From the NCBI RefSeq assembly GCF_024223415.1, contig NZ_CP100500.1: DNA of 64,000 bases; one strand, written 5' to 3'. Positions 47,425 to 48,980 of the stretch are shown here, in pieces. The notes beneath the pieces were generated by a model, which worked only from the letters and a program-made list of their open reading frames with translations, searched no databases and had not been told where the DNA came from. Positions within the stretch are counted from its first letter, which is position 1; the number at the start of each line of letters is the position of its first letter. Source of the stretch: Escherichia coli (GTDB lineage: Bacteria > Pseudomonadota > Gammaproteobacteria > Enterobacterales > Enterobacteriaceae). Position numbers and translations under genes: made by a program.

Positions 47425-47922
47425 CTACATTTGATGCTTTTTATCTCTTAAAGATTCATAGATCTGTTGACAAGTCACTCCTGCGATGTAGCGTTCGTCA
47501 GCAATTTCAGCATAAAACTGAGCTTCTGCTGCAATATCTCCGAGCATGTTGGTGAGCATTCCTTCGGCGGTTTTGGTTGTTTTGCCTCTGACGGCAGCGG
47601 CAAGATCTGCGGTATGCTTCGCTGCGTCAAGGCGTATGGCATATTTTTTTGCTTCGGCACGCAACTGGTTAACACTATCAGACAGATAAGCAGCCCTGGC
47701 AGAAATTTCAGCAGATTTCTGTTGTGCATCTTTAACAGCCTCATCACGGGCTATAGTTCGCCCCTGTTCAATTATTCGAGCAGCAAATTGAGCATTTACC
47801 TCTTGTGATAATGCGGCAGCATCACGTTCCGCCCATTTTTTTTGCCATCCTCTGTCGCTCCAGACATTTCCGACGATAAATCCTGACAACACGAGAAAAA
47901 TCACCATGAATATCTGATTCAC
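47425..47922 (-). CDS. rzpQ: Rz-like i-spanin (RzpQ), 165 aa
   Basis: N-terminal TM plus coiled coil; downstream of endolysin. Confidence 0.85.
47475..47729 (-). CDS. rzoQ: Rz1-like o-spanin lipoprotein embedded in the +1 frame of Rz
   Basis: Lipobox LTSC then proline-rich segment; fully nested in rzpQ. Confidence 0.6.
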
Positions 47923-48452
47923 TGTTCTATCCCCCAGCAGGTTAATGCGCTCTCCTGGTCACGACGAATAACCTGACCGTAACAGTTATTTGAACGAATG
48001 CGGCAATCGCGTCCGCCATCCTTAATCCACCAGCGAATCGCTTCGCATGCACCTTTACGATCACCAGCATTCAGCCGCTTATAAAACGTCGACGGGAAAC
48101 ACTTACCGGGGCCAATGTTATAGGGACAAAATGACGCGATACCCGCTTTTTGTGGTTCGGTCAGTGGTACTTTAATATTGCGCTCCACCCATGCCAGCGC
48201 CTTATCACGCTCAATGGCGTTGACCTGGTCGCATTTTTCCTTCGACAGTTTCATATTGGGAAAAACGGTTTTTCCATCCACCACTGTGGCACCCCGACAG
48301 ATGGTCCATATGCCAGAACCATCGCGGTATGCCATTGTGTGGTTACCTTCTTTTTCGTCCAGAAACTGGTCAAGTATCTGAGGAGCAGATGCGCCAGCAC
48401 CAATCAGCGCCAGAACGGCAGCCGACAGGCCGTATCTGATTTTTGTGTTCAT
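47919..48452 (-). CDS. rrrQ: SAR endolysin (phage lysozyme with N-terminal signal-arrest-release domain), 177 aa
   Basis: N-terminal weakly hydrophobic Gly/Ala-rich segment ([16 protein letters not shown]) then lysozyme domain, as P21-type endolysins. Confidence 0.9.
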
Positions 48453-48760
48453 ATATATTTATGATGAGCACGCTCGTGCTTATTGGCAGGATTTTCAATC
48501 TTAAAGGAGTACTGATGCTGCAGATAAGACTCAACTTTTTCTGACAATTTTTCTGCTACTTCCAGGAAGACTTGCCGGACGCTCCTTCTGGCTGCTGCCT
48601 CATAAAACTCCAGCGCAGCTCCTTCAACACGGTCCATGGCGACATCCAGGTCAAAAATTTCACCGTCAAAGCGTTCTTTGTCCTGTAAGGCTACAGTTAC
48701 CGTAACTTTATTCTCAAAATTACGGACTCCTTTCACAACCAGTTCATAGTCTTGAGTCAT
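48449..48760 (-). CDS. ydfR: YdfR (DUF1327), 103 aa
   Basis: ORF between holin and endolysin. Confidence 0.8.
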   Translation of the reverse strand: MTQDYELVVKGVRNFENKVTVTVALQDKERFDGEIFDLDVAMDRVEGAALEFYEAAARRSVRQVFLEVAEKLSEKVESYLQHQYSFKIENPANKHERAHHKYI

Positions 48761-48764
48761 TGGA

Positions 48765-48980
48765 TTACTCTCCTCTCGCAGCCTTACGCCTGTCTTCTTT
48801 AATCTTGAAATAAAGATTTGTCAGATACGTCAGCAGGCCAAAAACCAGGCTACCCAGCACACCGATTGCAGCCCACTGTGACGGAGTTACTTTATCGAGT
48901 AACTGCAATGCCCAGAAACCAGCATTACCCGCCGATGTGCCATAGGCAACACCTGTTGTTAACTTATCCATTGATTTCAT
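48765..48980 (-). CDS. essQ: Class II holin / pinholin (S21-like) with dual-start motif MKSM, 71 aa
   Basis: Start at [14 protein letters not shown]; two TM segments; C-terminal charged tail. Confidence 0.85.

Follow-up and report, generated by a model that had tools for sequence, protein, structure and literature searches.

A predicted pinholin/SAR-endolysin lysis cassette with a probable accessory gene, ydfR, in a Qin-family prophage of Escherichia coli

Positions 47425-48980 of a 64,000-nucleotide stretch of Escherichia coli DNA (NCBI RefSeq assembly GCF_024223415.1, contig NZ_CP100500.1; the whole stretch is referred to here as the window) raise the question of whether the genes found there make up a complete phage lysis cassette, and what role is played by ydfR, the gene placed between the holin and endolysin genes. 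The region holds four minus-strand open reading frames (ORFs) arranged head to tail together with one nested ORF, all tightly packed, and it is very likely a complete and conventional cassette of the pinholin, signal-arrest-release (SAR) endolysin and two-component spanin type, belonging to a Qin-family (Tritos/mEp460-like) lambdoid prophage and carrying ydfR as an accessory gene.

A first-pass annotation made from the sequence had described a five-gene lysis cassette with a pinholin-type holin, a SAR-type endolysin and an Rz1-like lipoprotein gene nested in the +1 frame of Rz, and had judged it to look intact. The five ORFs are found at exactly the coordinates it gave (Table 1), and the evidence below bears out the assignment of each of the three classes. 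Four nucleotides lie between the essQ stop codon and the ydfR ATG, ydfR and rrrQ overlap in ATGA, and rrrQ and rzpQ overlap in GTGA, with rzpQ following the endolysin gene as the last gene of the cassette. No frameshifts and no premature or internal stop codons are present in the cassette ORFs. The Pfam and PHROG scores point to strong family matches, not chance ORFs; a search of NCBIfam with the holin, YdfR and the spanins gave no match. EssQ, RrrQ and RzoQ are identical to the proteins of the plaque-forming phage Tritos, with YdfR and RzpQ each one amino acid different, and the description of the cassette as intact is therefore well supported.

Holin, endolysin and spanins

EssQ belongs by sequence to the class II holins of the P21 S family. 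Its Pfam match covers positions 1-63 of the 64-position profile PF04971, and the protein is identical to the phage 21 holin S21 at 59 of 71 residues (83%), all 12 differences being conservative, with 94% identity to EssD of the prophage DLP12. The MKSM dual start is the same in EssQ and S21. The phage 21 genome record annotates S21-71 as antiholin and S21-68 as pinholin, alongside a SAR endolysin, an i-spanin and an o-spanin, and by analogy essQ is predicted to yield an antiholin-like 71-amino acid form from Met-1 and a pinholin-like 68-amino acid form from Met-4 (ATG 48971-48969). Hydropathy, calculated throughout in 15-residue Kyte-Doolittle windows, is low (0.2-0.6) across the first transmembrane domain (TMD1, residues 7-28), which is uncharged and 57% Gly/Ala/Ser/Thr, and reaches a maximum of 2.1 in the strongly hydrophobic TMD2 (residues 36-58). 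The sole changes in TMD2 compared with S21 are L47F and F49L; Gly-40, Ser-44 and Gly-48 are kept, at positions that are important in S21. The family match, the identical start and the near-unchanged TMD2 all argue for a holin of the pinholin type, and homology suggests that EssQ would form the small (~2 nm), heptameric pinholes of this class, which depolarize the membrane and leave a cytoplasmic endolysin inside the cell. The predicted RNA fold of 101 nucleotides at the dual start (-20.8 kcal/mol, z = 0.18 relative to shuffled sequences) has no extra stability, and a small hairpin at the essQ start that pairs with the Shine-Dalgarno sequence is without statistical support.

RrrQ, a predicted muramidase of the T4-lysozyme type, matches two SAR endolysins of known structure, R21 (PDB code 3hde, E = 2e-16) and RrrD (PDB code 4zpu, E = 4e-16), in alignments that start at RrrQ residue 9 and therefore run through the N-terminal segment. 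The catalytic triad E35-x8-D44-x5-T50 occupies the same positions as in RrrD. At the N terminus, Lys-4 and Arg-6 are followed by 21 uncharged residues (7-27; window 48372-48434), and the hydropathy maximum of 1.9 compares with 2.8 for the TMD of RzpQ. A positively charged n-region, a hydrophobic core and a small-x-small motif (ASA, residues 21-23) are also what an ordinary cleavable Sec signal peptide would present, in which case RrrQ would be a soluble periplasmic lysozyme with no SAR anchor. We regard this as highly improbable. The residue directly after ASA is proline, and proline at the +1 position blocks cleavage by signal peptidase I, from which non-cleavage of the segment is inferred; in addition the segment aligns with the SAR domains of R21 and RrrD, residues 7-24 are 61% Gly/Ala/Ser/Thr as is typical of known SAR domains, and the free secretion of an active lysozyme would defeat timing by the holin. 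By homology, RrrQ would thus be expected to show SAR behavior, with export, tethering and release on depolarization. The protein has eight cysteines (residues 52, 74, 109, 118, 136, 150, 157 and 172) compared with four in R21 and RrrD, none of them in the SAR segment, which would allow for as many as four disulfides in the periplasm. Against more diverged phage copies the ratio of nonsynonymous to synonymous polymorphism (pN/pS) lies between 0.00 and 0.11 for rrrQ and between 0.12 and 0.24 for essQ, a comparison that indicates purifying selection on both genes.

The rzoQ start lies 193 nucleotides past the rzpQ start (193 mod 3 = 1, the +1 frame) and its end 50 nucleotides before the rzpQ stop, and rzoQ is therefore fully embedded in rzpQ, spanning 0.39-0.90 of its length, as is usual where spanin genes are embedded (PMC6139136). 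RzoQ has a hydrophobic signal segment and a lipobox, LTS|C23, that fits the consensus [LVI][ASTVI][GAS]C (PMC6139136), with valine at +2; the offset and the lipobox together confirm the nested lipoprotein gene. The mature protein has 62 amino acids with nine prolines and two further cysteines (Cys-58 and Cys-62). The TMD of RzpQ is N-terminal (residues 4-21) and reaches a hydropathy of 2.8 over residues 4-18; the protein has a single cysteine, Cys-151, so that cysteines for possible intermolecular disulfides are present in both RzpQ and mature RzoQ. Neither protein matched the Rz or Rz1 families of lambda and phage 21 in a Pfam scan, RzpQ matching DUF2514 (PF10721) only and RzoQ having no Pfam match. 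By analogy, RzpQ (as i-spanin) and RzoQ (as o-spanin) are taken as functional equivalents of lambda Rz and Rz1 from a different sequence family. The pN/pS of rzpQ, ~0.5, is expected because the DNA is shared with a second reading frame.

The mechanism that we propose for the cassette is built on homology to phage 21 and lambda. The four packed genes would lie in the late operon downstream of the antiterminator gene Q and be transcribed by Q-modified RNA polymerase past hairpins at 50778-50755 and 49452-49433. EssQ would be made from both Met-1 and Met-4, the 68-amino acid form acting as the active pinholin and the 71-amino acid form as an antiholin, since its extra Lys-2 would hold back the weakly hydrophobic TMD1 as it leaves the membrane. 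RrrQ would be exported by Sec and held tethered and inactive by its uncleaved Gly/Ala/Ser-rich N-terminal segment until, at the trigger time, small pinholes formed by EssQ TMD2 depolarize the membrane and free RrrQ into the periplasm, where it would refold into an active muramidase with Glu-35, Asp-44 and Thr-50 as the catalytic residues. RzpQ in the inner membrane and the lipoprotein RzoQ in the outer membrane would form a complex across the periplasm and, after loss of the murein, disrupt the outer membrane.

Table 1. Features of the lysis cassette and of its predicted transcription signals (window coordinates)
Feature	Position	Strand	Description
essQ	48765..48980	-	71 aa, start MKSMDK; PF04971 'Bacteriophage P21 holin S', E 4.4e-34
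ydfR	48449..48760	-	103 aa; PF07041 DUF1327, E 1.1e-53
rrrQ	47919..48452	-	177 aa; PF00959 phage lysozyme, E 1e-23
rzpQ	47425..47922	-	165 aa, GTG start; PF10721 DUF2514, E 5.5e-39; PHROG 312 'Rz-like spanin', E 7e-57
rzoQ	47475..47729	-	84 aa from ATG (90 aa from upstream GTG); PHROG 11621 'Rz-like spanin', E 2e-8
Q-type antiterminator gene (ydfT/quuQ homologue)	50884..51636	-	'antitermination protein Q' in cassette-identical genome and K-12
Candidate late promoter TTTGCA-18-TAAAAT	50853-50824	-	just downstream of Q; consensus scan
Palindromic hairpin after candidate late promoter	50778-50755	-	from the sequence
Intrinsic-terminator-like hairpin, cspB-essQ spacer	49433..49452	-	consensus scan; 8-bp stem with 5 GC pairs, then TTTTATTATCT

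Prophage setting and competence of the cassette

An 1851-bp region around the cassette (query 47300-49150) is 100% identical in several complete E. coli chromosomes and has matches of ≥99% identity in 1474 records of E. coli, with genes annotated as rrrQ, rzpQ, ydfR and essD/essQ. In K-12 MG1655 the locus lies inside the feature 'cryptic prophage Qin' and the genes essQ-ydfR-rrrQ-rzpQ/rzoQ (b1556-b1553 and b4689, rzoQ being annotated by that name) have the same order and spacing as in the window. EssQ and RrrQ are 100% identical between the two, YdfR differs by two amino acids and RzpQ and RzoQ by one each, and the flanking genes cspI, ynfU, cspB, cspF and Q (ydfT) are shared. K-12 Qin is however without the ~22 kb of head and tail genes kept in the window (~23400-45400), which encode the terminase large subunit, portal, protease/scaffold, major head protein, tape measure, J and tail fibers and are 96-97% identical over 91-99% of the length to the terminase-to-tail-fiber modules of mEp460, cdtI and Tritos. 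Judged by this gene content, the cassette sits in a largely complete Qin-family prophage and not in a cryptic stump of the K-12 kind; the K-12 Qin gene names assigned in the first-pass annotation apply to the window genes, whereas the prophage around them is far more complete than that of K-12.

Over the 1556-bp cassette, identity is 99.7% to Tritos and PhiR42_1, 96.7% to HannyBb and 94.7% to mEp460_ev081, all of which have the same gene order including ydfR and the same neighbors Q, cspB, cspI and gnsB. Tritos (OV696610) is prophage 3 of the adherent-invasive E. coli strain LF82, producing virions that are siphoviral by imaging and plaques on an MG1655 derivative (PMC9928086). The differences between the window and Tritos proteins, P97A in YdfR (48470-48472) and L135F in RzpQ (47518-47520), are lineage-specific relative to K-12, Tritos and the other phages compared; L135F is silent in the rzoQ frame, and the allele with both changes is found at 100% DNA identity in five complete genomes.

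Phage 21 (S21-R21-Rz/Rz1) and DLP12 (essD-rrrD-rzpD/rzoD) share with the window the holin family and its dual start, a SAR-type endolysin with the same triad positions, an embedded +1 o-spanin and translationally coupled genes. They differ in having no DUF1327 gene, with S overlapping R directly, and in their endolysin and spanin sequences. The Stx (Shiga toxin) and lambdoid phage cassettes of the form S-DUF1327-R-(ant)-Rz in YYZ-2008, Stx2 phage 86, PhiR12_2 and 2H10 have a P21-type holin, a DUF1327 gene and a 177-amino acid RrrQ-type lysozyme as in the window; unlike the window they often have a small convergent ORF after the DUF1327 gene, and ant before Rz. On these comparisons the cassette reads as a mosaic in which the holin is of the S21 type, the SAR lysozyme of the Stx-phage type and the spanin of the DUF2514 type. 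A pinholin with a SAR endolysin is reported for ~99% of Stx phages, and this pairing is standard among Stx and lambdoid phages (PMC8136144).

The late operon, with the cassette in it, is presumably activated through the Q gene. The promoter-like site and hairpin at 50755..50853 resemble a pR'/tR' layout by analogy to the pR' and terminator of phage 21, and late transcription would also need to read through the hairpin in the cspB-essQ spacer. The lysis genes are thus expected to depend on Q-mediated read-through, a dependence that fits their silence in lysogens. The Q-to-essQ region is collinear with that of Tritos at 94-99% identity (94% at the candidate promoter) with one 258-bp indel, an extra segment in the window between Q and cspB. 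Within the Q-to-essQ region, cspF (50250-50462, plus strand) is antisense to the predicted late transcript.

A rival reading takes the cassette to be intact in sequence and idle, a silent relic of a defective prophage kept by recency or by hitch-hiking with the flanking cold-shock genes, and we consider it possible, if doubtful. Several observations that favor it also weigh against the complete conventional cassette. Deletion of rrrQ or essQ ('essd-2') in K-12 has no effect on peptidoglycan or vesicles, unlike deletion of the DLP12 cassette (PMC12287860), and the ydfR operon is essentially silent in standard growth, with ydfR transcripts nearly absent (PMC13232886). In-situ inducibility is uncertain because an ORF for a 439-amino acid IS1202/ISEsa1-family insertion sequence transposase (55569-56888, minus strand; annotated as partial in the cassette-identical genome) lies in the early region of the prophage. 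The idle reading is further favored by terminator-like hairpins upstream of essQ and by the 1474 closely matching records, many of which are the cryptic Qin form. The silence of late genes is however the normal state of a lysogen and uninformative on competence, and the K-12 cassette transcripts are inducible ~9- to 18-fold by enrofloxacin (PMC12287860). The full structural module is kept in the window at high identity to plaque-forming phages, and the lysis proteins match those of the active phage Tritos.

Further points against the conventional cassette concern how far the paradigm systems can be carried over to it. Support for pinholes, SAR release and spanin activity comes from homology, and global identity of RzpQ and RzoQ to RzpD and RzoD of DLP12 is 19-20%. 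Identity between RrrQ and R21 is only 33%, and because of this and of its eight cysteines in place of four the activation or stability of RrrQ may differ from that of R21. The lack of extra RNA stability at the essQ dual start also counts on this side. The complete pinholin/SAR-endolysin/spanin cassette is nevertheless the strongly preferred reading.

Cold-shock genes flank the cassette on both sides, with Rfam matches to cspA-type thermoregulator RNAs at 49718-50110 (minus strand, cspB) and 46822-47207 (minus strand, cspI), and read-through from them may explain the reported cold induction of the cassette. The cspB-essQ spacer also contains a ynfU-like small ORF (49149-49370, plus strand) that is divergent from essQ and has a CxCxxC...CxxC zinc-binding motif. 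Elsewhere in the window, Rfam matches at gathering score are DicF small RNA (60751-60802, plus strand, immunity region), the Hfq-binding RNA STnc560 (10574-10787, minus strand) and IS009 (22208-22406, minus strand).

YdfR and the DUF1327 family

The PF07041 match of YdfR covers all 93 positions of the profile (1-93). The protein has no TM segment and no signal sequence (hydropathy maximum 0.5), and its AlphaFold2 model consists of three β-strands and a long α-helix with a predicted local distance difference test score (pLDDT) of 80.5. A Foldseek search of the model against the PDB gave nothing at E ≤ 0.001, with template modeling (TM) scores <0.37, and a PDB sequence search gave nothing significant. 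Foldseek matches in BFVD (best E 7e-3) were all to uncharacterized proteins and were rejected as evidence for function. A 3128-amino acid G2F-repeat protein from outside the window (P0134) with an E value of 1.9e-11 was rejected as a homologue because one weak similarity is counted six times, a single ~31-bit match to YdfR residues 6-77 at 29% identity being summed over six near-identical repeats.

The first-pass annotation had described ydfR as inserted between holin and endolysin; the position is correct, and the word 'inserted' applies to a recurrent and already annotated arrangement of lambdoid and Stx phages. All the phages inspected that carry DUF1327 among their lysis genes (Tritos, HannyBb, mEp460_ev081, 2H10, Stx2 phage 86, YYZ-2008 and PhiR12_2) have its start 3-4 nucleotides past the holin stop. 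A tblastn search found DUF1327 in 100 of 50,697 phage records, all of them coliphages and mostly Stx-converting, compared with 441 records with a P21-type holin. The arrangement recurs in phages and is lacking in phage 21, and the paradigm system therefore does without it. DUF1327 is a small family: of 1.84 billion cluster representatives, 54 match at E < 0.001. The matches that bear an organism name are all from Escherichia or Shigella, and many metagenome matches are nameless.

DUF1327 proteins consist of a conserved N-terminal domain of ~75 amino acids and mosaic, highly variable C-terminal tails. Their length is 103 amino acids in Tritos, HannyBb and mEp460_ev081, as in YdfR, and 114 in YYZ-2008, 169 in PhiR12_2, 183 in 2H10 and 268 in Stx2 phage 86, the longer Stx/lambdoid proteins having unrelated tails and, in the Stx lineage, an N-terminal domain with only ~38-47% identity. 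In deeper comparisons the ratio of nonsynonymous to synonymous substitution rates (dN/dS) of the N-terminal domain is 0.18-0.27, indicating purifying selection; the 4-5 changes in whole ydfR among close relatives are all nonsynonymous and are too few for pN/pS to be interpreted. Distant members of the family are placed between lambda gpI-like (a weak Pfam match) and gpJ-like tail-tip genes, between gpM-like and gpL-like tail genes, and after an ORF judged by eye to be Rz-like. Together with the place behind the holin gene, these are the late-operon sites at which DUF1327 genes were seen (context loci L011 3001-3506, L012 511-966, L013 503-1328, L004 2495-3625, L006 2489-3206 and L010 ~2528-3401). 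Behind the long-form genes there is typically a small convergent ORF, for which Pfam gave only a sub-threshold match to DUF1823 (15.3 bits compared with a cutoff of 25), and PADLOC defense models gave no match for YdfR variants or the convergent partners. This recurrent pairing suggests that DUF1327 and the convergent ORF form a mobile two-gene module. Because distant family members lie outside lysis cassettes, among tail genes, ydfR is regarded as an accessory, moron-like gene and is probably not a lysis component.

The alternative, that YdfR is an integral regulator of lysis such as an antiholin-like protein that sets lysis timing from the cytoplasm or a protein needed to balance holin and endolysin, would account for the fixed start behind the holin stop, the ATGA coupling of ydfR to rrrQ and the purifying selection on the N-terminal domain, and ydfR was recovered by a screen for envelope integrity (cited in PMC13232886). 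That hit could however stem from polarity of the deletion cassette on the SAR endolysin gene downstream. DUF1327 is also absent from phage 21 and from about three-quarters of the phage records with the same holin type, its distant members lie in tail-gene clusters away from lysis genes, its C-terminal parts are mosaic and highly variable, and overexpression of ydfR changed few transcripts (PMC13232886). We therefore consider such a role very unlikely and prefer the accessory gene, with YdfR a soluble cytoplasmic passenger from the same transcript that would not be needed for lysis.

The best lead to what such a passenger might do comes from a 2026 study in which YdfR bound the catalytic N-terminal half of RNase E in bacterial two-hybrid and co-purification experiments and DNase-resistant nucleic acid (RNA) co-purified with YdfR (PMC13232886). 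YdfR could on this basis be a late phage effector that acts on the RNase E catalytic domain, binds RNA and tunes the stability of late or lysis transcripts or host RNA decay, encoded by a mobile moron module (often with the convergent ORF) at varied late-operon sites, after the holin gene, after Rz or between tail genes. This is a speculative proposal that we hold to be unlikely as it stands.

Meaning for the Qin family and for DUF1327

The cassette itself is already known, being annotated in K-12 and following the well-studied phage 21 paradigm, and its practical value is that of a clean natural mosaic cassette in a prophage still bearing its structural genes. The sole real point of interest is the role of the DUF1327 protein, which is conserved and which many Stx and lambdoid phages co-express with their lysis genes. 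If true, a role for YdfR in the control of late mRNA would be of moderate interest to researchers on phages and on RNA decay.

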